Part shown: positions 18,180-41,351 of the stretch, piece after piece | Layout of the letters: every line of letters starts with the position of its first letter | How positions within the stretch are numbered: position 1 is the stretch's first letter | Origin: Atractiella rhizophila | Lineage: Eukaryota | DNA length: 64,000 bases | NCBI GenBank assembly: GCA_021432655.1 | Contig: MU271181.1 | Coordinates: 201,189 to 265,188 of the forward strand | Direction of reading: 5' to 3' | Program-made: the position numbers and the translations under genes | The notes under the pieces: model-generated | Told to the model about the DNA's origin: nothing | The model's database searches: none | The model's input: only the letters and a program-made list of their open reading frames with translations

Positions 18180-21100
18180 AGGGCTCGACACCGTGCCGAC
18201 CCGTTGATTTTTTGGGCAAGACGGGGACGGGACGATTACACCCCGTCCCGTTTGTCCCGTCTGCAGGATTCTTCCCTTGTCGAGGACGGGAACGGGAAGG
18301 GGTACAGTTGGCTAAAACGGCTTGCCCACCGGCTTACACGGTTTGACAGGGAGGGAGGGAACCAGGTTCAGTAATAATGATCAAACATAATCAGTTATCC
18401 CATCAGCGACATGACACTTCACTGAAGTTCTTCAATCAATAACAATCGGTCCGTCTTGAGGCATACGGAAAAGCCACTCCAATTCTCCTTTCATCCTTCC
18501 ATCATATCTCCACCACGCCCTGAGGAGCATCAATTTGTGAACTGTTTCTGCTTTCAGGGAGGTGCGACACAAGGAGATAACATCCCGTCCAGATGAAAAC
18601 ACACGTTCAACGGCGACGGAGGAAGCTATAGCACAGGAATTAAGTGTGAAATAGAACAGGAAAGGCAGCAGTGAGCACACACCCGGAATACTGAGCACAT
18701 CTCGAGCAAGTGCGGCTAGTGTGCCAAATCGACCATTCTGACCTTGATTCTTCCACCAAAGTAAAACATTCGACTCCGCATTAGCAGCACAATCGTCAGA
18801 ATCTCCTTCCTTGCTGGTGAGGTGGTTCCAGTACCGTTCTAAAGGATGTAACTGTGAAAGAGCGGTGGTTTTTTGTACACTGGAGAAAATTCGTGCATTT
18901 AACTTATCGGCTGCTGTGGTCCGCTCTGGCACACCGACAGCTGGAGGAGCAGCGGATGGGGAGGGAGCTGGAGGAACTTGGGGAGGATTGCGTGCATATT
19001 CCCGATCGTACTTGAATTTCAGGCTTGACTTGGCTCGTTCGAGGGTCTGCGGATCAAGTCCATAGTCAGGATTTTCAAAGATTGCAGGTCCCATCCGGGG
19101 ATCCAACACTACAGGAAGTATTCAGTTCACTAACCAAGTGCATAAGCAAAACACTTACAAATTGCCCAGTAGTACCATGGATAATCATCAGTTTTGGCAA
19201 AATATTTTGCTAACTTTTCGTGAGCCTTGATCAAACCGTTCATGACAACTGGCGGAGCTGTGAAAGGCAGAGTAGCGACCACATCCTCCAACTTCTCGAA
19301 GAGCTGGAGGAAAAGCAGGACAACACTACTGACCGTAACACAGGAAGTGCTGGACATGAGAGCGGTTACATCAGCAAACTTCTCCAACCACGTTGTAACG
19401 AGTTCAATTGCAGCCCAGTCATCTTCGGATAGGCATACACCTTTGAGATCCTTTGTTTGAACTGCCGAGAAGTTGTCCACTGCTTGCCTAAATGCCAGCG
19501 CTCGCTTCAGCATGAAACATGTTGAAGACCATCATGTCTGAACATCAAGGAGCAAGAGCTTCTCCTTTTCGTCCAGATCCTGCCTCGCCGTATCAATGCA
19601 ACGAAGCCACCAATCTTTCTTTTGAGGTGACGACTTAGTGCATTTCACGATGGTTCGCAGCTGGTGCTCAAGATATAGAACAGCAAGATAAATGCGTACC
19701 CTTTGAATGGCAGTGCCAACGTCAGCGTTGCTCTCAGAACCGAGAGCATCCCCATCTCTCTCCCTACTACCACCAACACGCTGCTCAAGGTCCCCAGCCT
19801 GATCAGAAGGAGCAGTGATATTCTCCAGCGTGCTTTGATATGGTTCGTGCGCCTCATCCTCCAGTGTGACAAGAGCTGGGTGCCCTAGTTGAGGTTGCAC
19901 TGAGAGGAGTGGGATCTGTAGCTGCCACAGTTGAAGAAGAGCTGCCATCCTTCACTTTGGGCCATGCGCCAACTGAATTGAGGAGTTCGATGACGGCAAG
20001 ATGGACAATATGCGGAAGACATCTTCCTCTGCGTTCGGCTGCTGGGAAGGATATACCATCCTTGGCAAACAGCAGCTCTAATTCTTCCATCATCATGTCG
20101 TTGGAGCTTGCGTTGTCCGAAACAATCACAGAAATCTAGGCTCCGTTCAGGTAAGTACTGTGACACCACTTCTTATAGAGCAAATACGTACCTTTTCCAA
20201 AATCCTCAACCGTGTGAGAACACCGTAAACCAACTTGGCAAGCTTTTTCCCACTGTGCTCTCCATGCACCTCAACGAAATCCAACAAATCGGTATTAAGA
20301 TTCCAGTTGGAATCAGCTGGATGGCCACAGATCGCGAGGAAACTCGAATTAATACTGGCGGTCCAAAGATCAAGGGAAATAGCGAATTTGCATTCCACGG
20401 ACTATAAAAGTCATGGGCCAATGCCAGTGTGACAAAATAAAATAAATGTACCTCATAGTATTTGATGAGATTATCCCCAAGGCTGTCAGAATAATCCGAA
20501 GTTACACGTCGGATCATTGTTGAAGAGGGAATCTCCAGTCAGGAACCGTGGACATAGCTCAGCAGATCCCTCAACTCCTGGCATTCAACCTCCATAAAAG
20601 GCTGCATGCTGACCGAAACCCAACGCATGAGGAGGTATTTGAGCCTTTCAGGATCTACCTTCTGTAATATAATCTATAAGTCCCATGCTTTGCCAATAGC
20701 GAACGAAACAAACCTCATTGCCATTTCTTTCGAAGGACGACCCCTTTGCAATCGAATGATTCCTCATCCATGCTTGAATACTACCTGGAGCTGGCACATC
20801 CTCATCCTCAGGCGGCGAATCCCTGCGCAACGACTTGTATTCTGGAGTCGTCAGTTCCTTTCTTGCATATCTGATGTCGGTGTCATTCAGGTCCTCGCAG
20901 GCCGGAGTATTTGCGAGTCATTGGAGGGCTTTTGTGACATATTGTCCATGCTTGTTCTGCAGATGATTGATCAAGGCGTCGTAGTTGTATTTACTTTCGC
21001 TCGTCTGGCGAAAGTAGAGGCTGCATCGGCGGCATTGAAAGATACGGTCGTTAGGAAAGACAGGGCGAGTTCTGAATGCTCCTTTCGGAACGGCAGTATG

Positions 21101-22270
21101 ATCTTCAACATGATGGTAGAAGAACTTGCACGTCGCCTTGCCGCGAGGTTCGTTATTGCGAGCTCTCTGAGTAACTTGTCAGGGTGAACAAGGAAGTAGC
21201 TAAGCATCAGGTACGCACCTTTCTCCGGGATTCTGAACCGAACCCCATTTGCTGCTCGTCATCATCAGTTGTTTCCTATTGCAACTTGCTATTAGTCGGA
21301 CGGTCAAAAAAGAATGGTTGACACCTACTCGCACCGCTCCCGGCACCTTTCATTTCTTCTTCTTTTTCTGCTCCTTCTTCTTCTGGGCTCTTGTCTTTCC
21401 CTTCTGGGTTCCATCTTCCTTTCTTCTCTCCTTCATCGCATCCGCCGTTGCTTGATTCATCTCTCTGCCATCTTCTTCTTCCTCCATAGCTCCAGCTCCA
21501 ACTCCGTCTTCCTCTTCCTCCTCGGGCACAAAGTCCAGGTCCCACATATCCTCTTCATACTCCTCCAGCTCGCCCACTTCAATCAGGATCGTTACAATAG
21601 TCGCCCCAACTTTATTGAGGTAGCGTAACAGTTCGACCATCAGTGAAGGGAATGCCGCGTGTTGCTTTCTAGTCTCGAACCAAAGCTTGACGAACGACGA
21701 GATACCTGCCCCGCCGCCAATCCCCGCTGTTTTGAGCTGTTGAGCTGAGAATTGGACGAACTCGTCATCCTCGTCCAGTGGTTGAGGCTCATCAGCAGTG
21801 GTTGACATTACGAGGGAGAGAAGGTGGAGGGAACTCAGAGCCAAAGTTGAGTTGGTGTCCTAGAATGGAATGCATGAGGAAACCATTCATACGAGAGCAA
21901 TCAAACAAGTATCTTGTCGCATCATAGCTACTCTGGTTCGCATCTGACATGAGCCTGCAAGTGAATATTAATCTATCAACAAATGTTGATGCCAAAAAAA
22001 GAGGACAAACATTTCATGTAGCTGTTTCTTCTGCGCTCTTTCCGACAGCGATGTTCCATCTTCGTTGTTGTTTTGAGCTAGGTCGACTGGCTTTTAACTC
22101 TGTTACTCTTTATACCAGAAGGCTGAAATTGAAGTTTCGGTTGATCCATGACTGTGCAGTGACGGCTCTTGGAGCAGAAGTACACCCAGTGGCAGCTTTT
22201 AAGGATTGCACCCTCTTTGCAAGGTCCGGGAATACTACATCACACGGGACCGTGTACACGCCGACGTGCG
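18180..22270 (-). mobile_element. hAT transposon with spliced, inactivated transposase (~21844 to 18432); distal TIR not found
   Basis: Motifs ISLDLWTAS, HSGKKLA, SDNASSND, RCLPHIVHLAV, LDVQT*WSST (TGA in place of the usual Arg), ASSVAVERVFSSGRD. Left end TAGGGCTCGACACCGTGCCG with CCCGT subterminal repeats. Confidence 0.85.
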
Positions 22271-22625
22271 AAAAGAAAATGAGTAATACTCATCAGAAAT
22301 TCCCTGAAACACATCATAACATGTCCATGACCTGCCGATGCAGCATCATCTTTCTCTTCCACCCTCCTTCCTCCATTTCCGCCACCACCCTTCACTTCTT
22401 GGTGCAGCTCCATACTAAGATCCATTGCTTTGGTAGAGATCGAGAACCCGCGAGCATTGACAGAAGCAAAATTTCGAAATGAGGAAAGGAAGGAAGGGGG
22501 TACATGATGATGGCCGGGTCATCCTCAGGGTACCTATTCCTGACTCTATCCTCAGCCTCAGCAAGTCATCTGCAGCAAGACAGCAAGAGGAGGAGGAGCG
22601 ATAGTGGGGTGTGAGATGAGGGGTT

Positions 22626-22684
22626 TCACCAGAAGACAAGACTGGCTAGATCCTGTTTCGCTAAGGCTTCTTCAGTTCTGGTGA
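22626..22684 (-). ncRNA. Type I hammerhead ribozyme
   Basis: Minus strand reads UCACCAGAA-CUGAAGA-A-GC(CUUA)GC-GAAA-CAGGA(UCUAGCCAG)UCUUG-UC^UUCUGGUGA: 9-bp stem I, full catalytic core, minimal stem II, stem III with one G-U pair, GUC triplet. Predicted cut between 22635 and 22634. Confidence 0.9.
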
Positions 22685-22717
22685 TGGTGAGGGCTCTTTG
22701 GGAGGCGCTCTGGGTGG

Positions 22718-22723
22718 TTTATA
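22718..22723 (-). promoter_or_regulatory. Possible TATA box ~35 nt upstream of the hammerhead (pLTR promoter)
   Basis: TATAAA on the minus strand; position alone is the evidence. Confidence 0.3.
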
Positions 22724-23211
22724 AGTGAAGGAATTGATGGGGATTGCCCATCGCATCATGCAGAGTTGTTATCTGCGCTTCAACGTAGGCTGAGGTTCTT
22801 TCTTGTGTTTTCTTTATTCATTGCAGTGTTGAGTCCTTATGTGGAAGAAAATAGGGTGGAATGTGGTCTTTGTGGCGCCTTTTTGGTCGCTCAAAGGGTC
22901 CTGACACCCCCTCTATGGGCTGTCTCTCCTGCGTTTCCCTGTTCCTCAAGATGAAGCGGCAATGCATCATATGCTTCTTGTGCTAAATGGGGATGCTCTG
23001 GATGATTCAGGGCGGTCATGGAGAGTCCTGAGGCGTCTATTCCATTCCTTTTCGATGGCAAAGTGCTGTGAGATCACTATTTTTTGCATCATTTCATCAG
23101 CGGGGCTCCTGGTCTTTGAGTGGATGGTGCGATGGTTTTATATCTTTGCTTGTGTACATTCCTATCTTTTTTTCTGATCTTTGTGGTTTCATCACAGTGA
23201 AGCGTTGGGTC

Positions 23212-23796
23212 ATGGGAGAGAATGAGAACGTCCCCTTGGTTCTCTCTTATGATCCCATCAGTGATGAATTCTCCACCCTCATGAATTCATATATCGTCAA
23301 TTCTGCAGTGCGCTTTATGGATGGACAGTTCCCCGTTCTGCTTCATCCAGGGGAGAAGAGGTGAGTTCTCTCGATTCCTGTCTCACATTAGCGCCATTTT
23401 ACTCATTTTTGGATGTAGGAGGCGCTATGAACCCTATCATGTAGCCTGGTATCAGCGTCAAGGCACCAGGGGCAGTCTTAGGACCACTTATGGCGATCCC
23501 ATGGTGTGGGCACGGTCCAAGAACTTTTTCTTGACTGCTGTGGTCCCAATGGGTTCGTTCTCTATCCTATTTCCTTTCATATTTTCGCCTAATCCATGTT
23601 TATAGAGATATACTGTCGTTTATCGCCTAGACAGTTCCGAGCGATCATCAGGAGGAGGGAGAAGGAGGGATGGCAGTATGATGATTCTGCAGATCATGAT
23701 CTGGAGAAGGAGGCTATTGACCTTTGCAAAAGGCACTCTGTATTGCCTCACAAGGTACCTTGGGGTCAGTTCATAGAGTTGGAGGCTATGAAATAA
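23212..23796 (+). CDS. 157-aa hypothetical protein, three exons, antisense to the RT
   Basis: Exons 23212-23360, 23419-23552 and 23606-23796 (474 nt); introns GTGAGT..TAG (58 nt) and GTTCGT..CTAAT..TAG (53 nt) keep the frame open from ATG to TAA. Confidence 0.7.
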
Positions 23797-24077
23797 ATGT
23801 GATTCATTCGATTCATCTCAGTATTGTCATTGCACCATGAGAGGCTGAGTTCTATTGATTCCTTCGACTTTCTTTGGGGCGAGGGCCGCCACATAACGTC
23901 TCAGAAGTGTTCTGAGGGCCGCCTTTCATGTGTACATGTCTAGTCTTGCATCAAAGTTCAAGGGATTGATTATGAGCTTGAGGTTTGCATCGATGTGGGT
24001 CGTATCACGTCTTCACAGTTTGAACAACAAAAAGGCCGCCTGAACCCCAAAAGCCTCCTTGGGGCTCAGGATACTCT

Positions 24078-24437
24078 TTTCATACTCGTCTGCTTTCGTC
24101 ATATCTTGGTTCGTCAAGACGTAACCGCGCAGAGGAGGTGCTGACGAGCATATGAGGGCTTTCCATCAGACTCTGCTCACAACTCGAGCGGTAGATTGAC
24201 TTGCGAGGCAGAGGTTGCTACCTTCGAGCCATCAGCTTCTGTGTGATGGATTTGCCTCTGAGATCCAGCTGCACGAGGACGGCTCCCTTGCCTATCTTGG
24301 TTTGTCGGGACGTAACCGTGTAGGTGGTTGCCGGCCGCTCAGCAAATTCCCATCATGAGGATCTTTGTCCTCAGTCAGGCAGATTGACTTGCAAGGCAGA
24401 GGTTGCTACCTCTGAGGGTTCAAATCCTCATGATGGG
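24078..24437 (+). ncRNA. Array of four hairpins (A-B-A'-B') with conserved apical cores
   Basis: Core A 24102-24129 vs 24293-24320 (24/28 identical); core B 24190-24223 vs 24378-24411 (32/34). Basal stems differ in sequence but pair, e.g. a perfect 14-bp stem 24349-24362/24424-24437. Strand suggested by G-U pairs. Confidence 0.65.
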
Positions 24438-25133
24438 CTCTTACATCTCCCCACAAGGCGAGGGAGGATATCAAGCTCTTTAGGCGATGTATTGTTGTGA
24501 TTTCCTCAGACTCAATCATCGTCGCTCGCTCGTCGTCATAAAGACCTTTTTGAGCCTGACACATGCACAAATGGAGGCAGAGGCGACGAAGCCAACTTCC
24601 CTCTGAAGTCTGGGAGGGCCTGTTCGCTCGGCGCTGCCTCGCCTCAGTCTCGCATCCAAGGATGGAGATTTTTCTTTTCGTCAACGACGACACATCTTTC
24701 TCCCCAATGGGTTCGATGTGAAGGCTTCTCCTGAGAGAGACCCACCTCATGGTCGCCTCTAGAAGGGTCCATTGCCAATGTCCCTACGACCTCTTATGAG
24801 ATGTTGCAGCATTCGGATTACCCCGCCGATTCCTGCTGAGCATACCCGCATCGTCCGGTAGGGTTTTTGCACGGCGCCCCCCGACATGGTGACCCCAAGC
24901 TAAATAGCAAGGTTCCAGCACGATCTCTTTACAGGGGCGAACATCTAAGTGTCCCCATTATGCTCAGTAAGTCTCTCGTCAACACCAGCTTCAGGGTGTC
25001 CTCATCGCCAGCTCGTTGGGCGACAGGTTTGGGTGATTCGTTTGTCTTTCATGTCTAGCCTTTCTGCTTTCGCTAGTAGTGTTTCGCCTTTGGTTCTTTA
25101 ACATGGTACTTTGTATCTGTAAACAGCTTTCAT

Positions 25134-26090
25134 TCATTCAGAGTCGCTATGGAGTTTTTCATCCTCATCCCTGACCTCTTGTCTCTTCCTTTTGCCGATT
25201 GCCCTCTGGGTATCATCAAATTGCCACGCTGCGTGGGACAGGCTCTTCATCTTGAAGATCTCGTCATTTCTGATGCAGTCAATCGTGACGACCATCGCAG
25301 CATATGCGTCCACCATTGCGTTATGGTTGTGCGTGAGCTCCTTGCCTGTGACATTCTTGAAGAGGGTGGCGAGCTTCTGGGGACGAGGGTACTTCTCGTA
25401 TCGGGTATTTCTGAGTTTGAGAAGCTGGTAGGGGTCAAAGACCTTCCTCTCATATGGCTCGATATCCACCTCGACCTCTTGGAATTCTCTCACGAGGATG
25501 GGCCAGTCGAATTCCTTTATGTTGTAACCAAAGATTCCGGACGATTTCGTGATGAAGTGGAGCAGTCGGGGTGCAATGTCCCTAAAAGTGGCACACCACA
25601 TGACATCCTTGTCGTAGATCCCGTGCACATCGCTGGCTGGTTTGGGGATGACGCGGTCAGGAAAGACACGTATGTTGAAGGAGAAGTGGCGATCGTGGTG
25701 CTTGGGGAGGACGACGAGGCCTATCTCGACGATATTGTCGCTGAGCGTGCTCAGTCCTGTGGTCTCCAGGTCGATGCAGATGACAAAGTCTTTCCACCTC
25801 AGTCCCATCGCCTTGGCGTAGTCGACCAGGTTTCTATATCCATCCCAGGGGTGTGCGTCGCCTTCATCGAGCGGCCTGATGCCCATGGCCTGTTCAAAGG
25901 AGCGACAGAACAGGTTCTGGCTGTGCGAGCTGAGTCGGTCGAGGTCAAGCGTGTTGAGGACCTCTGGGAGGTCCTCTTCGAGGGCGCTGCGTAAGGAGAA
26001 TCTAAAGGCGTCGTGTGCCGATTTCGTCGCATAGCGAAATGCCTCTTCGATATGGTCCTGGAGGGTCCTTGCTCTTGCGTGGTAAGACAT
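25134..26090 (-). CDS. DEDDh 3'-5' exonuclease (DnaQ / Pol III epsilon-like), 318 aa
   Basis: ExoI ICIDLETTGL..DNIVEIG, VHGI, ExoII GYNIKEFDWPIL, ExoIII HNAMVDA; uninterrupted ORF with a ~100-aa N-terminal extension and a basic KRKR tail. Confidence 0.92.
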   Translation of the reverse strand: MSYHARARTLQDHIEEAFRYATKSAHDAFRFSLRSALEEDLPEVLNTLDLDRLSSHSQNLFCRSFEQAMGIRPLDEGDAHPWDGYRNLVDYAKAMGLRWKDFVICIDLETTGLSTLSDNIVEIGLVVLPKHHDRHFSFNIRVFPDRVIPKPASDVHGIYDKDVMWCATFRDIAPRLLHFITKSSGIFGYNIKEFDWPILVREFQEVEVDIEPYERKVFDPYQLLKLRNTRYEKYPRPQKLATLFKNVTGKELTHNHNAMVDAYAAMVVTIDCIRNDEIFKMKSLSHAAWQFDDTQRAIGKRKRQEVRDEDEKLHSDSE

Positions 26091-26205: not shown

Positions 26206-29089
26206 TCATGTTGCATATCGATTAGATTCAGTATCCCTTGGCCTTTCTAGCTCTGCATACAGCGACGTGCAGTTTGGGGGTAGCTTGAAGCATATTTTCG
26301 CTCTTTCAGAGATTGATGGGGGCATGCCAAGTTTTGTGGCAGTAGAGGCAAATTCATCGAGTGGGGGGCGAATCCTGTCCCTTTCTGTGAATGGGTTCGA
26401 CTCCACTTTGAAGAGGAGTGGGAGTATATCTTTCTTATTCTCCTTCTCTTCTAGATAGCGCAGACGATCTTTGTGCCTGACCATAGATAGTTGTGACCTT
26501 ATGATCTTGAGGGGGTATCCTCTACGTTGGAGGCGTACCGTGAAGAGTGAGATCATTTTGTCAAACTCTTTGACACTCGAGCACGCCCTGACGTATCTGA
26601 TGGCTTCTCCTTTGATGAACCCGGTCTTCTGTTTGTGCTCGTGGTACGAGTGAAAGGGAAGGTAGAGGTACTGGTTCATCTTCTTTTGAAAGATCTTGGT
26701 GGCCATCCGTCCGTGAGAGGGCAGTTCCTTGTCCTTATAGATGGTGAGATCAAGGAAGTCCACAGACTTGGTGGACAGACAGATCGTATGTGAGACGTAT
26801 CGTGGGTTTCAAGGAGTTGTACTCGTTGATGAAGGCTTCCGCTTGGTCCCGTGTTCCAAGGATGAGGGCAAAGATGTCGTCAATATATCTCTTGAAGAGT
26901 ATGAGTTTGTTGGTGGAGAGCCAGCGTTCAACAAGGTCCTTCTCGAGCAGGTGGAGGTATAGATTCGCATACTGGACTGCAACTGGAGTCCCCATGGCAG
27001 TGCATTCTTCTGCTGGTAGCACCTGCCCTGAAACTGGACGTAGGTCTGTTGTAGTACGAATCGTAGCATGCGAACGATGAATTCCCTCTTGGGGCGTTCC
27101 AATTTGGTATCCGATTGCAATATCTCATCTATGCTCCTGATGCCGTCTTCCGTGTCGATGTTGGGATAGAGTGACTCTACGTCAGCAGTCACGATCCAGA
27201 GCTGTTCCTCTCCTCGTTGCTTGCTGTTCTTGAGTTTGTCTTGGAGGAGGCGATCGAAGGCAAAGATACGGAGCAATTCTGAGCTGTCTTTGAGCACAGT
27301 AGGGGAGGTGCGCTCAAAGGGCAGGAAATGTTCTGCCAACCACCACTGCGACATGAAGTACGTGGCCCAAGTCATTGTTGGACATATCGGGCGACTAGAA
27401 GGGCTCGCCTTGTGGACTTTTGCGGTGATGTAAAACTTTGGGATGACCCATTCTTTCCTTTGGGAGAGCCACTTGAACTCATTTTGATTTATGTGTCCTT
27501 CGAGTTCCAACTCGTCAGCAATCTCGATGAGCGAGTCAAGTTCGTCCCTCGTGGCAGCAAGGGCCCTCTCCTCATTTGTCACAGCGTAGACATCTTTATT
27601 TTCGAGGTGCATCAGTGCTTGTGAGACATACCAGCCCATATCGACGGCCGCGTAGCCGAGATTCTTGTCTGTCAATATTACAAGTATGTCTGGTTGTTGT
27701 AACAAGCATTCTAGGCCTCTTCTTGAGTGGTTTGACATGTTTTGCTTGTCTGCACTATGTACAGAGTCTAGGTTCGCTTTCAGAGCATGCTCTAGTTTCC
27801 TCAGGGCACTTTCCAGCTCTGGAGAGCTCTCAGGGGGTTGCCAGGCGCTCATGGTCCTCCATCGAGGGAGCTCAGAGTTTTCTTTGTCCTGAAAGTAATG
27901 CTTGAGCCTTATGGTCCGTTTGAAGCTTTCGATGGCTTCATCGATGACGTCTAGGCGTGGTTTCGGACAAGGTATGAATTTATTGCCTAGCCTGAGGAGG
28001 TCCTTTTCTCTTCCGCTTAGTCCTTTCCCCGTAAGGTCATGTACGGGGCAATCAAGGATCCCAAGCTCGATGAACCTGATCACGGTCTCATCAGGATTCA
28101 GATTGTGTTTTTGCAATGTTTGTCTGACGCTTTCTCGAGTTCTCTTTGCACGATCAATGATGTGTAGCATATCCTTCATTCCACGTTTCTTTGAGAAGTG
28201 ATGTCTGTTTCTACTTGCTACATGCGTTTTCCTCCCCTGCCCCTTCCTCTTTGTGATCCCCGTCGATCTTGTCCGGGTCTCTGCGGTCTGTTGCGCTTGC
28301 TTTTTGCCTTTGGGAGTGTTCTCAGCAGGTTCGGTGCCAGAGGAGAGTAGACTCACTCGGACCCTGTTCAAAGTGTCAAGCTTTCTGCTTTCATGTCCGA
28401 GGCGTTTTTGCTGCTCGAATTCATCTGCTGCAGCTTTTCCCTGGATGATGGCGTCCTTTCTGAGTGCCTCCCATGATTCGGAGGCCAGCTTTCGTTCCCT
28501 ATCAATGGTATCCTTCTGCTCAGGGTGGGCTTCGGCGAGGGAGGTGTAAAACTTGTTGAGCTTTGTCGCCAACTCGATCACTATGCTTCCCTTTGCAGCA
28601 CAGTAACCAAAGCAGCGTTTTGCTTGGAGGTCCTTCCATTGTGCAATGGTCTGTACAGCCTTTGTGACTGTGACTTTCTTCATGTCTTCTAGCTGTTTCT
28701 TTAGATCTCCATCCCCATCGACTATCGTAGGCCAGGCATCGATCCATGGTTTAAAGGTCTATGGGGGTTGTGAGGGGCGTAATGAGGATGCTATGAACTT
28801 ACTTTGGGTGTCTTTTCATCACTCAAATCCTTGATCAGCTGTTGTGAAGTCCTGTGAGCAGCGTGACCCCTCTTAGTTAAAGCCTTTTTTATCGAGCGGT
28901 GATGATTTTTAGTCTGTGGTTTGCTTCTGAGAGTAGAACTCACTGAATCTTTGTAATTGCAGCTCTGATTAGGGCAGCAGCGTGGTCCGATATGGCTGAC
29001 CCATTCGTGATTGGTGGATTCGTCATCATCTCCAGCAGGGCATCGCCAGCAGAGTCGTTGCTGGGATCTATCATATCGATATCTGACAT
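26206..29089 (-). pseudogene. Penelope-like reverse transcriptase with two 5' introns and frameshifts
   Basis: Motifs LLRLGNKFIP, TDKNLG, FYITAKVHK..RPI, TADVESLYPNI, TAMGTPVAVQYANLYL, RYIDDIF, VDFLDL, YLPFHSYH..GFIKGEAIRYVRACS. Exons 29089-28944, 28851-28803 and 28758 onward splice in frame. Frameshifts at ~27003, ~26775 and probably ~26272. Confidence 0.9.
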
Positions 29090-29499
29090 GTTATCTGTAT
29101 AGGTAATTATCAGAAGTGTTTACTGATATTTGCTAGCTTTATTTGGACGAAAATTTCGTCATTGAAATGCAGGAGGAATCCTTCAGGCCACCACTTAGAT
29201 GGCCATCAGGAGACCAACGCTCTCCAGGTGTGAATCTAGCGAAAACACCTAGTTCACAGTGTCCATAATGGAGTGACTGGAACACCCTATCCTGAGTGTA
29301 CTAGTGCTCAGTGAAAGGGAATCTCTCTATAATGCAAGGCTTTATGCTCAGGATGATAATGCTGAAATCAGATGCCAGTGGTGTTTGATTTTGGGGTTGG
29401 AGCTTGGCATGGACCTTGGAGGCATATGGAACACTTCCAGAGGCATACGGAACACTTCATGGCCACATGGGATCAAAGTGGGCATTTGTGTTCTTAAAG

Positions 29500-32030
29500 G
29501 AGATGCCTGAAATTGAGATGGCGTCGGTAGAGCTGCACGTGTCGCAGCACATAGCCCTTCCTGCTCATCTTTCTTCTTTCTGGCACGAGCTCGGATGGGT
29601 GGAAGTTGTGACGAAGAAGCTCTGTTGCTAGCGGATCTTATAACGTCTTGACTAGAAAGTTGGTGGGAAGGTGAGATGGAGTTGGAAGAACTAGATCTCA
29701 TCAAAAGATGGCTTAGGCAGAAGTTCACCAAGAATATTGCTATGATCATATCATCACATCTAGGAGCATGGAGGAGGTGAGTCTCTGTGTGGGGAATATT
29801 TAAGGAAAGGATTCTAATACAGCCACTTGTTCTTACGCAGGTATGCACACTAAGTTCAGACAATGCAATTTCGTTGGCGAAATTAGGCGACGACAACCGC
29901 TTTCTGTTATCCAGCCCTCCACGCGAGCTACACACACATACCTCTATCTCATTTCTCTTAATATTTTCAGTCTTTCCCACAAGCAGCTCGAATATATCAT
30001 GAGAAGATACATCCTTTCCTATCCATGTCCAAATTGCTACTCAGCACGATCTTTCATCAAATCCTTATGTGCAGCAACTCGAGTTGAAGGTATTTGAGCT
30101 AGAGAGCTCTTTGGAGAGGGAACAGATGGACAAAGATAAGTGGAAGAAGTTTTACAAGGAGAAGGATGAGGAGGTGGATTGATTGAGGCTGGACATTGAC
30201 AAAGCCCAAAAGGTTCTTCCGTCTGCGGATTCCATGTTGAAACAGCCCATGGGAGGCATCGGAGCGATGGCCACGGAAAGAGGCACTGGAATATCGGCAG
30301 AAGATTCGATCCAAAAGCCAGTGAAACCATACCGGCCGATTATCAGCAAGGAAGATGCCGATTACCTTGGGATCTTTTGGGAAAGCAGACAAGCAGCGGC
30401 CTCAACACGTATCGGTGCTCAGAACAATATCCTCGATCCAGTCCAGGTGCTACATCAGCTCATCTTCCATGAAATCGATAATACTGTCATGGGAGCAGCA
30501 CAGTTGTCCAATGCAACCGCCGATGTCATCCAAAACGATGCCACCCTCTACACGAGAACCTATCTTGACACTACGAAGTCGATAAGAACCAGACAGGTGT
30601 TTGCAAACCACCTATCTTCCAAACATCCTGCACAAACTCGAGGAGGACTACAGTTCAGTTCTTTGTCTTGGAAAGACTGACTGGATGGCACGCATCTTTG
30701 TCACCGGTGTCCTGAGGAATAGGAGTGGAAGTGCCTACAACTATGATGATGAGGATGATTCAGCAGATGACGAGGATGGAGGCCAGATTGCTAAAAGAGG
30801 AATGAAGAGGAAGGCGAGTATCGATGTAGGTGTCGCACTGCAGGAGAGGAGAAATGGGGTAGAGAGATTGCATGCGGATCATGGTGAGCATCTCTCTCTC
30901 CTTGGGCACAAATGGGGCCAAAGAGGACCAGGGCTTGAAGAAAGCGGTGCTTCTATCGGCACAGTGGTAAGAGTGCTCGAGAAGACAATGAGCAGGAAGA
31001 GGTACAGACCAACGGTATGTTTTCAACTTCCTAAATTGCTCGACACTGAGTACTCTGCACACAGGCGAATCTCCCGAATGATCCACTTAGAGAGAAGAGG
31101 GCCAGGCAGGACAAGCTACTTGAGAACCAAAACAGCTCCGTCTCCATGCCTGACAGCATTAAGGTCTCCATTGGTGCGTACTTTGTTTGTCATGACACTC
31201 TCCGCTATTCGAAAGTAACATGACAACAGGGGAGCTCAAAACAATGGTTTCCGACAATGATTGTCTCAGAATGCTGGCTGCATTTATTGAAGACGGTGTG
31301 CTACCTCTCTGCGATGCCAATTCTCGTACCGTCGAAGGCGAAACACTTGCACAATCAGCGACAAAACACCTTCTCATTGCCGTAACATTTCCCATTCCCT
31401 TGGCACGACATTAGAGCTAGAGGGAAACAAATTGAAAGAATGGCACCTCTTGCTTGGACTCTCGCGAACCCTTCGTAATTTCCTCCACGCGAAACCCGAC
31501 ACCTTCAACTGCCACTAGGACGGAGGAAGAACGAAGGGTGATAATCTCTTCCATCACACTCGACCCAACAACAAATTCATCTTCATCTGCATCACGAGGT
31601 CCAGCATCCACTGATCTAGTGATACAGTTCGGTAGGTGGTGAGGAGAAGAATAGTGGATTTCGGAAGACGAGAATATGGAATCTGTTGGGCTGGGGAACG
31701 ATCTGGGCACTAGCTAGACCACAATACCAACGGTAACCACAAGGATCAGACTTCCCCAACACGGAAAGAGGACCATTCATGAAGAATTCGCATGCACAAG
31801 GTTTAACAATCAGTTTCATGGACACGCTCACTCCAAACGCGGCAGTCCGTTTTGTGAATACGCTGGATCAAACGGCCTTTGCTGGGAGATATAAGAGTGG
31901 TTCAAAGGAAAGCTGGGATGTGGCAGTCCTCCTTACAGTTCCACTTTGAGCTCGAAGTCTGACCGACATGGATAGAATGCAAGGTATGTGCTGACCAGAC
32001 GCATGTTCATCTATTAATGAGCGCTTGATT
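29500..32030 (+). pseudogene. Multi-exon hypothetical gene, probably disrupted
   Basis: Successive plus-strand ORFs (30183..30680, 30601..31218, 31220..31414, 31454..31642) with GT-AG intron-like gaps; no recognised domain. Confidence 0.35.
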
Positions 32031-32186: not shown

Positions 32187-32398
32187 GATGTCACCTGATC
32201 TTAAAGGTGGCTTGGTGAGGGCGGAGGCGGGAGAAGTTATGAGAGAAATAGAAGCTCGAGAAATAGGGGCTCAAAGCCAAGAAGGTATGTTTCTGTTTGT
32301 CTGCCAAGTTATCAAAGGCTGATGATGTCGCCTGGTTTTAAAGGCAACTTGGTGAGGGTGGGGGCGGCAGAAATTATGGGGGAAATAGAAGCTCTGGA
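32187..32398. repeat. Diverged ~75-bp direct repeat, ~138-bp period
   Basis: GATGTCACCTGATCTTAAAGG..GAAATAGAAGCTC vs GATGTCGCCTGGTTTTAAAGG..GAAATAGAAGCTC. Confidence 0.6.
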
Positions 32399-35174
32399 CC
32401 AAGAGGATACTTTTATTGTCGCTCCGAAGTTAGCGAAGCCTAAGATGTCTCTTTGTACGAAGTCCTCTCGTTGAGGGAGACGACGGTTGGAGAAGCCATG
32501 TAGAGAGATCTTCTGCATGTTGTTCGGAATGCCAGACCAAATCGCGTCCAAATAGATGGGTCCATCAAGAGTTAAATTCTTCAGACCAGTGAATAAGAAT
32601 ATCTCCAAGATATGGATTCCTCGCTGGTTTCTTGATCGGTTCAGGTGAAGGGTAGTATTGAAGAGCATCGGTGCTGTAAAAGGGAGTGACTAGGAGGCAC
32701 CACCTCACTTGAAGATGCCTAGACTGTTCGAAAATCATTTGTATGTTTGATACAAATACAACCTGTCCCAAAATGAATTACCTCACTTCCTTCTTCCCTG
32801 CCAGTGGTAAGTCTTGGCAAGCGGCCAGGAAGTCCAATATTCTCGCAACTATTGTATGCTCATTTAACCCATGAGACGCAGGACGCAGCAGCAAGACACC
32901 GGCACTAATCCAGAGAAAAGGCCAAGCAAGATCCCAGCTACATCACAGCACTGAAAAGACTGATGCCGCAACAACGAGTACAATTGGCAATCAAGTTAAG
33001 GCAAATGTTATTCCTCAGTTGCCTGGGAAGCCTATGGGATTCTTTCTGAATCTTGCTGTAATCATATGGAAGTTGTCAGTGATGCCCACAGCGCTCTGAC
33101 AAGTAAGTAGGCTTGCGTGCGAGCAGTACTAGACGAGAAGGAGGAAACCAATATAGGATAAGTTTACTCCTCCCTCAGCTGCTCCCTTTGTTGTCTCCGC
33201 ATGGATCCCAGAGTTACTTAAACCGAAACATCAATGGGTGTGCCAGCTCACGCAAGGAGTTTAGACAGGACAAATCACAACCGGAACTTGGAGAAGCCAC
33301 AATCTGTACCAGCGGCGCTATTGCGTCGGATGCTCAAACGACTCGGAGGATCTGCGAGAAGCGAGCAAATATTCAGCCATAATTGAAATTTGAACAGCTT
33401 TAACTTACAGCAACTCGGAAAGCTGCATCATTGTTTCTTGAACGGTGCGAGATAGGAATCTGCGTTAAAATACAAATTCTAGATCATATTCTAGTGAACA
33501 TGCCACCGATTATCAGCACATGGAAGGCAAAGATAGACAGCCAAGTCAACGAAGAACAGAAGAACCGAGAGCTGGTACTGATTTGTTGAACGCGGGAAGA
33601 GTCTAAGAAATAGGATGCCATTAGCAAGCAGGAGAACCAGTCAGAAGGCACCTAAATGGTGCGAATTGATAACGGAGAGAGAAGAAGAAGAGAGGAATAC
33701 GGTGGAGGAGATATCTGAACGAAAAATCATCCTCAAGTACGCATGCATAGGAGCAGGCAGGGCTCGAGAGCATGGGGGAAACTCAGGACAAGAGTTTGTC
33801 AGGCGCAAGAACAAAAGGTAGGAAATCAAGCATGGACAGATCTTCCAGTGCTGAGCGAAGAACTTGTAAGGTCTCATGAAGTAATCGTGAAGACGTGGAA
33901 AGCATAATTTGCAATTTGAAAAGGACTAACGGAGAAGCTGACTGCAACCAACACACCATCTCCGACATCCTTAACGGAGAAACAGCCTGCAACAACACAC
34001 TATCTCCGATGTCTTTAAGATCATCTATCTTTCTCTTCTTGCAATTCAGTTAATGTCAAACGATCCTCAATCCTCCTGCAGCTGCACAATTTCAATTGGA
34101 AACCAAAGAAAAACACTCTACTTCGCCAGGTCTCCATTCTCTCGTTCCTGACTACACGCCGTCAATTCACTCTCCGCAACACTTTTTTTTCCCTATTCGA
34201 TCAGTGTAAACCTATCCCTGAATCTATCCCATTTTCACTTAAACGCCTCCAATTGAAAAGCCCATGCCAGTGCCAATGTATCTTCACATCACCGTTAACT
34301 CAGATATGCACGAAACCCTTGGAGGTTGTGTGTCCGATCGGAGCTTCGCAGGGATATTATTCACTCTTTCAGGGTGCACACTGGATCTTTACAACCTGTT
34401 TTCTGACCGACTTTGCTTGAATGGAAAACTTGCAATCATTTAATTTTGAGGTTACACAGAGTTGCCTAACAATTCCGACATTCAAGCAAAAGACAGGTGG
34501 CAAATTTCATAGTAAATTATTCGAATTTAATCCCCTCATGGACCTCCAATCGACAACTTAGAAACCACGTTCGCAAGCTCCTAAGGTGATAGCACCAATA
34601 TTCCTCTAGAAATACGCATAGAGGCTGCCTGTAATCCACTCCCTAGACACATAGGTACAGCTAAGTAAACTCAAGATTGCAAATTGTGCCTCATCATCTC
34701 AAGTCTTCGATAGCAAGTTTCAACAGCAGTTGAATCGATCCTACTTCCGCACCGTTTTTTGTACAAATCTAAGGAAAAGACTTACTGTTCAAGGAGACAG
34801 CATGGACGGTCTGCCCTACTCTCCCTCAGAACTAACCACTCAAGTTCCTCGCTTCTTTCTTTCCTCGTCGAGACTTGAATTGGCAGCTTGATTGAGTCCA
34901 TTGGATGGACAGAGCAGAAAAAAATGAGGGGTAAATGAGATTTAAAAGCACCTTGCCATCCCCAAACACTCTGTAAGACCTGTCGGATCCAGCAAGGTGA
35001 AGAAACAATATTGAGTGCCTCAGCGGTTAAGCCCAGACCAGACCCCCCTGGGAGTCTCGCTTGTGTGAGTCATACAGGGATGTTAGGATTGCCACCAGCC
35101 CAGTTCGTCCTGTCAGACGAGCGTGCGGGACTGGCACAGCCTGTCGACTGTCGATCACAAGAGAAGAAGATGAA

Positions 35175-38100
35175 TAGGGATGGCTATCGGCTCGTATCGT
35201 AACGGATTTCACTATTCCGAGCGGCACGAGCATTAAGCCGTCCTCGTACCATGTCGGAGTGTCACTCAATTTATCAAAAACAGGCTAGTTCGACTGCAGA
35301 CCGCGTCATCTGTCCATAATACGGGTTATGTCCCAAGTGTTTTGCATTGTATCTCATTTTTCTCCTGCTACTCTATTTGGCTGCCTTCAAAACATCCCCT
35401 TCCAACGCTTTCAATTGCCTGTGAAGATCCCTAAGGTGAGCTCCCCTCTGCATCCGGAGTGCGGTCTTGAGAAGAATGAGATCACGAATGGTTTCGGCAT
35501 CCAAGCGACTGCGACGAATACCTAGAGTATCGCGTGCACCTGAGAAGATGTGCTCGACCCTAACAGCACAACCTGCCAGCTCTATTATTATAAAGGATAA
35601 CAAAAGAGAAAGAAAGCTCATCCGGAATTGACAAAATATCCTGAGCCAACCGTGAAAGGTTCGGGAGATCGTGAGTTGATTCGTATTTCCAGAAAGCCAA
35701 TGGATCAGAATCCCAAGGTAACACACTATGTCTAAATAAATGGTTAATCTCTTTTATGACAGGATCCTCACTAGCTCCAGGAGTAACCCCGTGCTGAAGG
35801 GAAGCAAGGAAAGCAGCTGTTAACTTCGGCTTTGCCTTTGTGGATTGTCTGGAGGGTTTTGAGCGGGGAGAAGTTGGCTCAGGAGGATTGACACATGTCT
35901 TATAGTAGTGATATCTGAAAAGAGCGATGAAATTCTCCTTGTGCTGCAAGACATCATCATGTTCACTATCAAAGACAGAAGAGTCAAGGAAAGCGACACC
36001 AAGACGAGGATCGCAAACTGTTCCGAAGTCAGACTCATTGCAGAGCAAGGGCAGAACAAAATGACATACTGATATCATAGATGTAATAAGGTGAAAGATC
36101 AGAGCGGTAGTGATACTCACTAAGCTTATAGTAACAGTCAAGCAAAGCTTGCCAGTACTCTTTCTGAACTGTCTTGTCCGTAAGACTTGAGATTTCCGTC
36201 TTCAGGTGTCCTAGGAGAGAATGGTAGACACCAAGAGTTTGCGAGAGGCAGGAGGACATGGTCATTGACATGTCGTAGGTTGCCTGCCGAAAAACTGCAA
36301 GCCATCTGCAGACCTGAATCCAGCTATTCAGTAATAGTATAGTTCTAAGAGATAACAAACCTGTTCAAATCGAATTCCACTCTTTTTCGCTGAGGTGCAG
36401 TGAACTCAGAAGCTCATGACGATCCAGATAAGCTTCAATGACATCCTTATAGCGAATTCCAAGGTCAAGCATGTCATGTGTTGATCCCCAGCGTGTTTGC
36501 ACGTCAAGGATCAACATACGAAGGGATTTTTCGGCTATGCTTTCAAATTGCTTGAGAGCATCTTCCAAAAGATCGAACCAGCTCTGCTGGCGCTGAGGAG
36601 ACCCATGTATATGCTTAATGATTGCTCGCACCTGCTCCTCTGATTAATGATAAGGAATGATAGAGCATAAGATATACCTTGGGGATTGCTCCTCTAATCT
36701 GCTCGAAATCTGTCTCCATTCCGTTCAGCTCTTCCTCGCCTAGTTTCCCTGCATCCATCTGTTCATTTGCTGGGTTCTCCGTGACACACTCCTGATAGTT
36801 GACGTCCCGTGAAAGTGATGTAACTTCTGTCGGATGCCCACTCATCGTATCCGTCCTCTCTTTCGCCTTCGTAGCTGACCGAGATTTGGCCATACATTGA
36901 GAAAGTCTAGGAGGGCGAGAACTGCAAGGTGAACGATATGGGGCATACAAAGAATGTGGTGCTCAGAAGCATCAAAGTCGATGCCTCGCTTCTTCATTCG
37001 TTGCTCAATCCCGGTCAGCATTGTTCGATTGTTTGAAGCTCCATCAGTGACAAAGCATCCAATCTGTACAACCGTTAACGAATATGCATGAAATATAATT
37101 AAAGCAGATACTTGATCAGCCACTCCATACTTATCAACTATTTTCATAATGACATCCGCCATGTTCTCCCCTGTATGTGGGCCAATGAGTTCTTCAAACC
37201 CGACACATACCTCATTCAAGTCCCACTTGCTATCAATGAAGTGTGCATTAACACAGAGGAATGCATAGTGATTTTCTGAAGTCCAGTTATTAAGTGAGAG
37301 ATGGATCTTGGTTCCAGTAGCCTTTCCTCATGCTTCAGTAGGCTGTTATGAAAGCGTCGAAGTACGCACCTTTAGATATCTAGCCATTTCTTCTGTAGTT
37401 TTCAAAGCAACCTTACATATACGCTCCTTCAGAACCTTTCGGCTTGGTATTTCAAACTTCTTGTCACTATTCTCTTCTTCCGAAAAGCGGAGTCCTCCGT
37501 TTTCAGTATCAGAAATTTCAATCTTGGAGGCGTGTCCACCGAAGATATATTAGATGTTCCTGAAGGATGGACTTTCTACAATGCTGAATGGAAGGTCTTC
37601 TTCGACAACAAAGCGAGTAAGGAGGTCCTCGAAGATAGTAGAATTACAACCCTATGTATCATATGGTCAGCACCTACCGATTTCTGAAAGAGCCACAAAC
37701 CTGTGAGCCATACTTCTTTGCTACTTGTCGCAGGATGTCATCGATTCCTTGGCCCTTTCTTGCAGCTCTGGATCCATCTTTCGAATCAATCTAGATGGAA
37801 TTTCAGGTGTACAGGAGAACTTTAAATGAATGACTTTGCAATCAAAGGGATGAACTGGTATTATGCCTGCTGCCTTCTGCATCTCCTCCTCTGTGATCGC
37901 CATCTCCTTGTCCTGCTTTTCCTTCAAAAAGCTGAAGAACGACCTGATTGAGCGCCCATGATTTTCCATGTGATTACGGAGAGTCCTTGTATTGCCATTG
38001 CTGGCAGCTGAAGAACGAATGACTCTAGGGCAATGATTGCACTTAAAGTACTTATCGCCTTCTTTATGCTTCGGTTTGAGATATCCAGGAACATCCTCCC

Positions 38101-39508
38101 ATTTTTAAGGAATGGTAGAAGTAATAGACAACTGCACGGCGGTGACTGTAGGTGACTGCTAAACCCTGTGCTTCCATCGATCAGTATTTTGACAGCAATG
38201 CAGCGTACATACAATGTCTTCAGTTGCCTTTGGTTAGCGCCCCGGAAAGTTGACTTTGCAACAATGGAGCCATCAGAATGAAGCTGTCCACAATTTAGCT
38301 ATCATGAGATGTTTCACAGGCACATCATGTAGAGCGCACCTTTCTCCACTTGTTGTCCTTCTTTGAGCCATCAATTTTCAATGGTAATATCTCTGCAATC
38401 TCAGCTGCCTCGATATCAATGGGGTCAGGCTCCAACTTTGCATCCTCCTTCTCCTCTTGGTGTTGATCCTTCTCATTGAGTGTGAAAGCTCCATCTGGTC
38501 CTATCGGATCAACGAGACCTTCAGGCAGAAGAATAGCGTGGATGTGGTCTGCGACTGCACATAGATATGCTTTACGAGCACGGAGAATGACTTCAGGAAC
38601 CGAAGAGGGGGACGTTTGAAGCTCCTTCCACAGAGTAGCAAACGCTTTCAGACCATCTTGATATTCGACATCGTTGACAGATGAAGGGCGCCATCCTGAG
38701 AGAGCAGCATGGAACGGGTCGTCATTGTCTTCAGATTGAGATTCCACTTGAGCAAGAAGAGACGTCGCTTTAAGGTAAAGAGGCTACTGTTGCTATCCCT
38801 TGCATGTTACACTGTTCTCCACATAAAGTGTGAGAACGTACCGCATTAGCGATGCACGGCATGCTCCCATTTGCAGTGATAAGAGTCTTGAGACAAGCAT
38901 AGCCAGGTATGTCTGTCAACCTTGACACTAGTCAGTCACCCATGGACAGACTTTGTAAGAACTCACTCCGCCTCCAACCCTTGCTTCCTCTGCATCTCAC
39001 TCAAAGCAGTTCCATCCTCATTATTCCATTTAACCATATCCCTCAGCTTACGTTGCCTTTGAGGTCTCTTCTGCCGGTCTTCCTGAGGAACCATGATTGC
39101 TATGCGAAAGCGAAAGGGAAAGTCCGAAGAACTTGTCTGATCAGAGCTGAAAGGAAGGCACATTTTATAGACCGGGTCGTGGTGTCAGATCGACCAAGGA
39201 GAGTGAAGCATGAAGGCCTTCGAGAAGGTTTCAGGTGCAGTTTCGAGTATGGCTCGCGCCGCTTGCAGAATAATTTGAGATGTCGTTTTGACACAAGTGA
39301 ACAGGGAATGCGAAATACAAACTCATGGCTGTAGAACTAGACTCCATCATGGATTCCGCAGTATCAAGTCGATCCAAGCCGGACGGCACAGGAAGGCAGA
39401 CGTATCGTATCGTATCGGTGCTAGAATGGTGGGAGAGTTGGACGGTCGGGTACGGAAACACGTATCGTTCACGTACGGCAGAAAATTACGATCCGATAGC
39501 CATCCCTA
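35175..39508 (-). mobile_element. Full-length hAT transposon (4334 bp) with inactivated spliced transposase (~38747 to 35373)
   Basis: 15-bp TIRs TAGGGATGGCTATCG; flanking duplication GAAGATGAA; BED-like finger (FKCNHC..TLRNHMENH), PHTGENMA, TDGASNN, CMPHIVHLAV, LDVQTRWGST, LSRLAQDILSIP, VEHIFSGARD. Confidence 0.93.
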
Positions 39509-40099
39509 GAAGATGAACGGGATGTGGACGATAGATTCTGGTAGGTCAGGAATGGTACTAACTGACATTAAACAACTGAAGGGGAGTGGGAATATTAGGG
39601 TTAGTGTAGTTTTCCTCCAGCTGAATCAAAGAAAAGGATGTGTCAACCTGACTGCTGCTCAGGTTATGTCCATGAGTACTCCTGCTCCAAACTTGGCGCA
39701 AAAAGCTCGACTGCCTCCTCTCTTGTGCCATGAACAACTTCCTTGGGAGTCTGATCCTCTCTAGTTTAGAAGAATGAAGAATCGATGAAGCACCTTCCAA
39801 GCCTTTCCCACATGGCTTGTGATGTCTTTTCTATTCCAGATATGTCCATACATCATACACACAGAGGAAACAAGTTGGATAAAATGAATGTCCATTGCTG
39901 ATAGCGCAGTTGCAGTGGAGCACATTTCTCTAGTGCTCCCAATACAATTGAAATATGAATGGCTCATATGGACCCAGAGTCCATCCCCTAATTTTCCTCA
40001 AAGTCTCTGTTGGGAGGGAGTGGGAGAACAAGTTGGCCGCCCATATAAAAGAGAGATGGAGGTAGTCATGAATAGTAATGTGAATGGAAAAGGATAGTG

Positions 40100-40300
40100 T
40101 ATTTCTGCGAAGTGTTTTTCCAACACAGCGTACCTTTCTTTGACCCTCATCCAAAACCGTCCGTACTGTCACGACCCATCTCATCCTTCGAACTGCCCCA
40201 CCCCAACATTCCAGGACGATATGACGCGACAGGACGAGGACGAAAAAAAACATCGTCCGGCCCGACGATGCAAAAGCCAGCTGGACGATAGCCATCCCTA
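40100..40300. mobile_element. Orphan end of the same hAT family
   Basis: CGATAGCCATCCCTA at 40286-40300 preceded by ACGA/CCGT-rich subterminal sequence; no partner TIR seen. Confidence 0.75.
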
Positions 40301-41351
40301 CTTCAAAGTGCCATTTAAATATTTGTGGAAGAGGTGACATGAGATTCGACTGTATGACTGTGGGGATGAAGGCTGTCGGCTTCCTCGATCAAATATTACG
40401 CATCGATTAAGCCCGTGTGGCGCAAGAATAAATTCAGACTCCTGGGCTGAAAGTTCTGGACTATCAGTGAATTAAGGCTTGCACCAAGCGAAAGAGCCCG
40501 GGATTAGGACAACCCAGGAGTGTGCAGGGAGTAGGGACTGACAATGTGATGAGTTAGGATTGATGCCTGGGAAGGACTATCACGAAAACTTTGGATCCTC
40601 TCATTGGTCATGTTCAACCTACATGCAACGATGAATCAAGAACTTTCCCAGCAGAGAAAGGAAGGGAAATCCTTATATCCTTGCTTTACAGTACTAGGAG
40701 GTTCAAAACCTTAATCCTCCAGGGGTCGACGTCGATACTGCGGAATCCATGATGGAGTCTGGTTCTACAGCCATGTAAGTTCGGTTACAGAGATCTGATT
40801 TAACTTGAGTTCTGTCGTCTGTCGTTGTCATGGAATCATCATTTAGCATTCAATGCACGATGCTACACTCCTGTCCCGTAACGTCATTCTTAATCCCGGC
40901 GAACAAGTTTATCTTTGGAGTTCGCGGCGTTGTGTGATCTGTTCTGTCGGCATCTTGAGAGAATGGCATGGTGCAGGTGAAGGTGTGTCTGTTCGTGTTT
41001 TTCCTTTTCGGGGACACAAATTGACCTGAATTCAGCATTTCGTCGCCCCTCTCATTGAATTGAATTGCAGAAATACTTCACACCAAGGAGCAGAGTGTGC
41101 GAGTGTCCAGTGCAGTGCTCTCCAGCATCTTCCCAATCATCAGTCATCTGTATTTTCGGTTGAAAGGGGATTTTTCTGTGGAAATTATACCATTGTCATT
41201 CATCATTCAGACGCTTTTGCTTCGTGCGTTCAATTCTTAGATATTACATCAAAGAAACAGAGAAATTGAAAGGTTGATTGTTGATTGATCAACATCCGGA
41301 TCTAAAGGAAGTAATTAGTGCAACTTCAGCGGCACCAGAAATCAAACGTGC

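Follow-up and report, generated by a model that had tools for sequence, protein, structure and literature searches.

Structured 3' untranslated regions (UTRs) of retrotransposons are already a known kind. Loop sequence and helix shape, but not the sequence of the helices, are conserved in the 3' UTR of R2 and in the 3' stem-loops of the 'stringent' long interspersed nuclear elements (LINEs), and the reverse transcriptase (RT) chooses its template by them. The RTs most closely related to telomerase are those of Penelope-like elements (PLEs), and little is known of how they recognise the RNA of their own element. The telomere-attaching, endonuclease-deficient PLEs carry reverse-complement telomeric repeats at their 3' end, which in Athena and Coprina follow a hammerhead (described in passages of PMC8557442 and PMC6431247). 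The present study concerns a stretch of 64,000 nucleotides (nt) of Atractiella rhizophila (contig MU271181.1, positions 201,189 to 265,188; hereafter the window, numbered from its first letter), in which an array of four hairpins follows the genes of a decayed element. On its sequence this element is filed as an endonuclease-deficient PLE of Coprina type plus an exonuclease open reading frame (ORF). The array begins 694 nt past the exonuclease stop codon, downstream on the minus strand, and may well be this lineage's form of a structured domain that the element family has in its 3' UTR, and a probable recognition site for the RT or a ribonucleoprotein (RNP). The locus resembles the Athena and Coprina 3' ends in element class and in having structured RNA close to the 3' end, and its relatives in metagenome contigs also have a structured domain followed by CCCTAAA-like repeats. 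It is unlike them in that the structure is no hammerhead but a domain of two units and several hairpins (360 nt in the window, ~770 nt in the relatives), in that the relatives' hammerhead-like motif lies ~0.84 kb upstream of the RT, and in that the window copy is without telomeric repeats.

The hairpins of the array, and a fifth one beside it, are as follows.

24346..24440, minus strand: hairpin B' (core 24378-24416), the strand being assigned by the sense of the adjoining ORFs, not by the fold
24262..24345, minus strand: hairpin A' (core 24293-24323), with an irregular stem
24159..24250, minus strand: hairpin B (core 24190-24228), with an apical helix and 23-nt loop as in B'
24078..24158, minus strand: hairpin A (core 24102-24132)
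24039..24070, minus strand: fifth hairpin, CCUGAGCCCCAA / UUGGGGUUCAGG, then GGCGGCCUUUUU, within a wider structured region (23860-24720)

A 391-nt stretch folds into the four hairpins of the array, each 81-95 nt long, on either strand. Against shuffled controls, the fold of these 391 nt stands out on the minus strand (z = -5.15, 0 of 100 shuffles as good) and less so on the plus strand (z = -2.23, 2 of 100), and the 861-nt minus-strand fold of the wider region 23860-24720 gives z -5.0, with none of 20 shuffles as good. The initial annotation had placed more hairpins at ~23900-24070, and these are present, for example at 24070-24039. Among the 25 local inverted repeats that were reported for the window, B' is the longest; in it, a 16-bp basal helix is followed by CCUCAG/CUGAGG and then by the apical AGGUAG/CUGCCU closing a 23-nt loop; its basal duplex includes 14 perfect base pairs inside a stem of ~28 bp. 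When 90-nt windows were slid along the DNA (~6,400 per strand, corrected for G+C), B' and B fell within the 40 most stable, and A and A' outside them. The stems were also examined with the cores held constant and the flanks alone shuffled (n = 300). On the minus strand the stems of B' (z -6.4, 0/300) and B (z -3.75, 0/300) both exceed chance and that of A goes weakly beyond it (z -2.6, 5/300), while on the plus strand the values are weaker for all hairpins.

The two copies of core B (24190-24228 and 24378-24416; 39 nt, offset 188 nt) are 90% identical, and those of core A (24102-24132 and 24293-24323; 31 nt, offset 191 nt) 84%. With up to 3 mismatches allowed, each core pattern matches the 64-kb window exactly twice, against 0 in 100 shuffles, and the two core pairs were the sole matches in a self-BLAST of 22000-25200 against the whole window. 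It had been claimed that the two units share only these short cores. Both cores do recur, but 'only' is overstated: the units can be aligned end to end with 131 of 210 columns identical, a score (z = 9.3) that none of 300 shuffles equals. Identity is thus 84-90% in the cores compared with ~62% over entire units, and the cores occur twice with their order kept. Since the units are homologous over their full length and the basal helix CCAUCA/UGAUGG is common to B and B', the stems of the two units are less conserved than the cores rather than unrelated.

A third repeat unit upstream or downstream of the array was ruled out (z at most 1.98), despite the reappearance of CCTCTGCCT at 24583. The core B 9-mer CCUCUGCCU is found once more at 24583-24575 (minus strand), 181 nt upstream of B', with no other trace of a third unit, and GGCGGCC occurs three times immediately downstream of the array (24040, 23923 and 23890, minus strand). 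Rfam gave no match at gathering score in the whole window and only noise-level ones (E up to 10) around and downstream of the array; the array has no ribozyme or RNA family match there, in agreement with the earlier remark that it matches no recognised ribozyme. A transfer RNA scan of the window returned no genes.

The element upstream of the array consists of two ORFs.

25134..26090, minus strand: ORF2, an intact RNase T / DEDDh-type 3'-5' exonuclease of 318 amino acids (Pfam RNase_T, E 2.5e-18)
26206..28758, minus strand: ORF1, a broken Penelope-like (Coprina-type) RT of ~850 codons, assigned by its homologues and a DKN motif

The ORF2 product scores 67.6 bits against Pfam RNase_T (cut-off 24) and has the motifs DLET, FDWP and H-x4-D. 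Its relatives in Atractiella rhizophila (Basidiomycota) show 93% and 85% identity, indicating that further copies of the element exist in this fungus. The combination of an endonuclease-deficient Penelope-like RT with a 3'-5' exonuclease ORF is shared with Athena/Terminon elements, whose exonuclease is of the DEDDy type (passages of PMC5408684), unlike the RNase T / DEDDh type found here, with H-x4-D as its third motif. A limited literature search found nothing that links PLEs with DEDDh, RNase T or DnaQ.

Homologues of the RT align by tblastn over 28653-26260 on the minus strand. The 44 database homologues of ORF1 are 21-37% identical to it and mostly 870-950 amino acids long, with precomputed DUF8422 and HTH_animal domains; RVT_1 is weak on RT homologues, falling below the cut-off in four of the six scanned. 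Residues D339, K340 and N341 are invariant in a 45-sequence RT alignment (A1), this DKN motif being encoded at 27672-27649 of the window. DKN has been named a conserved PLE/Coprina motif (in part of PMC13159263, 2026, on Coprina elements), and DKG, DKA and DKT are given as variants (in part of Craig et al. 2021, PMC8557442). The clusters closest to the RT in the ESM Atlas have the domains DUF8422, RVT_1 and HTH_animal and come from Rotifera, Nematoda, Arthropoda, Cnidaria and Basidiomycota. Pfam detected no endonuclease domain (GIY-YIG or other) over the RT ORF, the neighbouring ORFs and six homologues, and a profile search of solved structures with the RT gave no telomerase match, the best hit being 8bgj_A (E 8.7e-4). 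The ORF1 frame has a single in-frame TGA (26806-26808), and motifs B and C (AMGTPV..ANLYL, RYIDD) are read in a different frame only, over ~230 nt (roughly 27020-26800). This shifted stretch reflects either two frameshifts or two assembly indels; with ORF2 intact beside it, the broken ORF1 is either a pseudogene of recent origin or the product of a pair of indels in the assembly.

Relatives of the element are represented by 46 loci, found when metagenome contigs were scanned with the RT alignment. An exonuclease homologue lies 250-450 nt behind the RT in 15 of them (tblastn E 3.5e-8 to 0.035), and two of the relatives' exonuclease ORFs pass the Pfam RNase_T cut-off. These 15 are among the 18 closest loci, and the contigs of the remaining three stop within the RT; given this occurrence in 15 of the 18, the RT followed by an exonuclease is a conserved layout in the relatives. 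Behind the exonuclease gene, eight loci share a block of ~770 nt (75-86% identical) made of two tandem units of 370-390 nt.

L013: ~770-nt domain at 5370-6140, CCCTAAA-like tail at 6283-6347
L001: ~770-nt domain at 5824-6597, CCCTAAA-like tail at ~6745
L009: ~770-nt domain at 6558-7326
L010: ~770-nt domain at 5265-6030, CCCTAAA-like tail at 6167-6198
L011: ~770-nt domain at 5108-5892
L018: ~770-nt domain at 3149-3914, CCCTAAA-like tail at 4050-4081
L005: ~770-nt domain at 4091-4872
L016: ~770-nt domain at 3497-4280

This domain shows clear covariation. RNAalifold predicts 207 pairs on its alignment (A2), 57 of which are changed on both sides. Shuffling the columns gives 24.1 +/- 3.4 such pairs, with none of 500 shuffles reaching 57, and a control that displaces the partners by one to three columns gives 3-9; paired cells amount to 94.3%. 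Long-range helices are predicted to join the two units, pairing A2 columns 93-133 with 769-809 and 186-221 with 694-749, and short motifs recur on the helices, namely TTAAA (6-13 times, expected ~2.5) and AGTRGCAG (2-5 times, expected 0). Invariant G.U pairs, of which there are several, indicate RNA of the sense strand. About 145 nt beyond the domain, all eight loci have CCUUUUUAAAAAAA together with a short CCCTAAA-like run, and contig L009 opens with an array of the CCCTAAA-like repeat (positions 6-110). Such features are characteristic of telomere-attaching, endonuclease-deficient PLEs (passages of PMC8557442 and PMC6431247). Because of these tails and the telomeric array of L009, the relatives' elements are placed at telomeres, with host repeats of the TTTAGGG type. 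Rfam gave no match on ten related loci at E up to 0.1, and a limited literature search returned no paper that describes, for PLEs, either an exonuclease of the RNase T type or a large 3' RNA domain other than the hammerhead. The ~770-nt domain looks like an undescribed structured RNA family.

The array resembles this domain in its distance from the exonuclease ORF (694 nt, compared with 744 nt in L013 and 737 nt in L001), in its tandem build of two units and in the repetition of short motifs on helices. Together with the stability of the wider fold, these features suggest that the array is the counterpart of the relatives' domain in the present lineage. The two are unlike in that the relatives' domain is twice as long and has helices running between its units where the window has local hairpins, and no sequence similarity joins them. 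The equivalence, the minus-strand sense and the binding of a protein are all matters that we infer.

The array may have arisen as an internal tandem duplication that gave two units of ~190 nt, both made up of an A-type and a B-type hairpin, and would be carried in the sense (minus-strand) RNA of the element, within a structured 3' UTR. The conserved apical sequences, placed on less constrained helices, are putative binding sites for the element's own RT or for an RNP that includes the exonuclease. Such binding would mark the RNA as a template and bring the enzyme close to the 3' end, at which reverse transcription would start. Recognition by the RT or an RNP is probably the likeliest role because loops are kept on freer helices and because the relatives' domain lies just upstream of the tail that has to anneal to the chromosome end. 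An RT or protein binding signal was among the functions proposed by the initial annotation and is the one that fits best, given a 3' UTR position in an RT element and a covarying domain in the same place in relatives. The 3' UTR structures of R2 and the stringent LINEs are cis-acting, as the array would be; the RT class differs, there is no sequence or Rfam relation, and we know of no tandem duplication of an A+B unit among such structures. An endonuclease-bearing Penelope-like RT has been found in vitro to bind an internal RNA region near the ORF start and to initiate inside the RNA (part of PMC11167929), biochemistry with which recognition of the array by the RT would be compatible.

Several observations weigh against reading the array as a conserved recognition domain. 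Within the window there is next to no covariation: hairpins B and B' have 18 pairs that fall in alignment columns common to both, and of these one is altered on one side, one on both sides and 16 not at all; A and A' have no pairs in common on the minus strand. The A' stem is at chance against shuffled flanks on the minus strand (z -0.6, 75/300). The summed hairpin energies are about equal on the two strands, so that the fold has no strand preference, and the wobble pairs at the tips are split, one (in B') favouring the minus strand and one (in A') the plus strand. The RT of the window copy is broken, and the window contains no TTAGGG- or TTTAGGG-type arrays, a single 11/12 telomeric-type match at 39595 being at chance level. 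BLASTN of the array against the 46 related loci found no similarity (best E 0.2), and a hidden Markov model (nhmmer) built from 32 instances of the relatives' sub-repeat had its best match in the window away from the array (E 4.5). As no sequence similarity was detected by either search, the correspondence between array and domain is positional and organisational only.

These results also bear on what had been said of the stems. The statement that they differ between copies yet still pair stands for B', B and, weakly, A, but not for A'; likewise, the excess stability over shuffled controls belongs to the 391 nt as a whole and does not extend to the A' stem alone. That divergent stems suggest selection on structure does not follow from only two copies with one compensatory pair, and the covariation looked for among the copies is nearly absent. 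A kissing or alternative fold between A and B, proposed on account of their partial complementarity, was rejected, since on the minus strand 244 of 500 and 467 of 500 shuffled cores are as complementary as the real ones.

A broader proposal, which we regard as doubtful, is that the array and the ~770-nt domain are lineage-specific versions of an undescribed RNA domain belonging to a telomere-targeting, exonuclease-encoding clade of PLEs and acting as a scaffold like that of telomerase RNA. The domain would occupy the 3' place that the hammerhead has in Athena-type elements, its loops would bind the telomerase-related RT, and the adjacent telomere-complementary tail would be held for priming on chromosome ends. 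If true, the scaffold would represent a concrete intermediate between retrotransposon RNA and telomerase RNA. The family unites an RNase T-like exonuclease and a large covarying 3' domain beside a telomere-complementary tail with the simpler two-by-two hairpin form seen here, whose loops are sharply conserved, and thus offers defined RNA pieces and proteins for work on binding and priming. For the window itself, an odd repeat is explained as part of a decayed retrotransposon, and the interest lies mostly at the level of the family.

A hammerhead-like motif was found apart from the array.

22626..22684, minus strand: hammerhead-like three-way junction recognised by a relaxed descriptor, 1.39 kb downstream of the array

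The relaxed descriptor asks for helix I of at least 5 bp, CUGANGA, GAAA, helix III and U-H. It has three matches in the window, while of 20 shuffled windows three gave one match and 17 none. The junction at 22626-22684 consists of a 9-bp helix I, CUGAAGA, a 2-bp helix II, GAAA, a 6-bp helix III and a U-C site, and its pattern is unique. Seven relatives have a conserved junction with covarying helices I and III that opens with CUGAAGAAGC, as the window junction does; it lies ~0.84 kb upstream of the RT in six of them and 1.6 kb behind a 3' domain in the other. Rfam scored the window junction at 13.2 bits (threshold of the RAGATH-1 hammerhead, 56.3), and an Rfam hammerhead search in the relative L001 gave no match. 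A covariance model of the seven relatives placed the window junction fourth of twelve in 9 kb (7.1 bits, E 1.3), and a search of the whole window with the same model did not list it. Its fold energy is ordinary (z -0.58). The junction is likely a degenerate hammerhead-like relic, which may be part of the 3' region of this copy or the leader of a lost neighbouring copy, so that its membership in this copy is uncertain. The ORF at 21350-21859 (minus strand) was considered as the start of a second RT behind the junction and rejected, being unrelated to RT. No CUGANGA...GAAA core occurs inside 24078-24440.

Distant relatives of the RT have compact hammerhead-descriptor matches of another type (CUGAUGA..GAAA..CGAAA), and in the stretches covered no match to the exonuclease was obtained for them (E up to 1).

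L032, 2379-2427: compact hammerhead-descriptor match
L033, 2061-2107: compact hammerhead-descriptor match
L034, 331-378: compact hammerhead-descriptor match
L037, 1074-1121: compact hammerhead-descriptor match
L040, 1679-1726: compact hammerhead-descriptor match
L041, 2836-2885: compact hammerhead-descriptor match

Other explanations of the array have to be weighed against recognition by the RT or an RNP. It may simply be without function, a neutral tandem duplication in a dead element, its uneven conservation being due to chance or short-patch gene conversion and its hairpins being inherited palindromes. The broken RT, the presence of only two copies, the single compensatory pair, the chance-level A' stem and the alignment of the units throughout would all sit well with this; it remains unlikely, as it leaves aside the cores of 84-90% identity within units of ~62%, found twice in unchanged order, the pairing of the B and B' stems far above chance, and the covarying domain that relatives retain in the equivalent place. 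Transposon-derived hairpins are common sources of small RNAs, and the long, nearly perfect stems, especially that of B' with its 14-bp perfect basal duplex in a stem of ~28 bp, might be cut by fungal RNA interference, the array serving as a hairpin-RNA or microRNA (miRNA)-like precursor by which the element is silenced or host genes are regulated. Several hairpins of 80-95 nt in tandem would indeed recall polycistronic miRNA-type clusters. The conservation, however, is in the apical loops and tips and not in an arm duplex of ~21 nt, A and A' are irregular, and no Rfam miRNA match rises above noise, the top one scoring 15.3 bits against a threshold of 90; a small-RNA source is accordingly judged improbable. 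Of similar standing is a role in 3'-end processing or stability, in which the hairpins would stop or guide 3'-5' trimming by ORF2 and so define a protected RNA or complementary DNA end. A DEDDh exonuclease ORF is conserved beside structured 3' domains in the element family; enzymes of the RNase T type remove 3' tails and work on ends that are structured (part of PMC3942315), and the DEDDy exonuclease ORFs of Athena have been proposed to process structured RNA 3' ends (parts of PMC5408684 and PMC6431247). Such processing would require structure only, leaving the conserved loop sequences unexplained, and since the relatives' domain lies ~145 nt upstream of the telomere-complementary tail, trimming to the domain would remove the tail.

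The remaining two explanations are much less probable. PLEs typically bear hammerheads (part of PMC8557442) and Rfam recognises no canonical hammerhead in the element, so that the array could be imagined as a new self-cleaving ribozyme or as a substitute for the usual 3' hammerhead. It is without a known ribozyme core, a separate hammerhead-like junction lies at 22684-22626, and the relatives have a hammerhead-like motif upstream of the RT besides their 3' domain, all of which makes a ribozyme very unlikely. Hardly any weight is given to an independent cluster of host non-coding RNAs, for instance of the small nucleolar RNA (snoRNA) kind, lying beside the element by chance. A two-hairpin unit of ~190 nt does resemble H/ACA snoRNAs in size and shape, but the array has no Rfam snoRNA match, neither strand has a hinge H box with a rightly placed 3' ACA or C/D boxes with a short terminal stem, and its position equals that of the element-internal domain of the relatives.

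The window as a whole looks eukaryotic and rich in transposons, with sparse long ORFs, and between 22 and 30 kb its plus strand is rich in T. Pfam gave no match for the small ORFs between the array and the hammerhead-like junction or for the ORF at 29348-30040. Elsewhere, mobile-element or effector-like remnants were found as follows; they comprise two hAT dimerisation domains, part of a PIF1 helicase, and weak matches to a tnp2 transposase and to the Crinkler N-terminal domain, both of these below Pfam cut-offs.

18432-19121, minus strand: mobile-element or effector-like remnant
35560-36201, minus strand: mobile-element or effector-like remnant
53659-54273, minus strand: mobile-element or effector-like remnant
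5084-6553, plus strand: mobile-element or effector-like remnant
62962-63849, plus strand: mobile-element or effector-like remnant

A 42-nt inverted repeat (39324-39365 and 40734-40775; 98% complementary, arms 1368 nt apart) brackets an ORF without a Pfam match (39930-40388) and resembles the terminal inverted repeats that flank small DNA transposons. Tandem repeats are present at 46014-46533 (four copies of ~160 nt), at 58530-58629 (three overlapping copies with a 25-nt period) and at 32187-32394 (two copies of ~137 nt), the last with a loose hammerhead-descriptor match at 32314-32414 (plus strand) that is probably due to chance.

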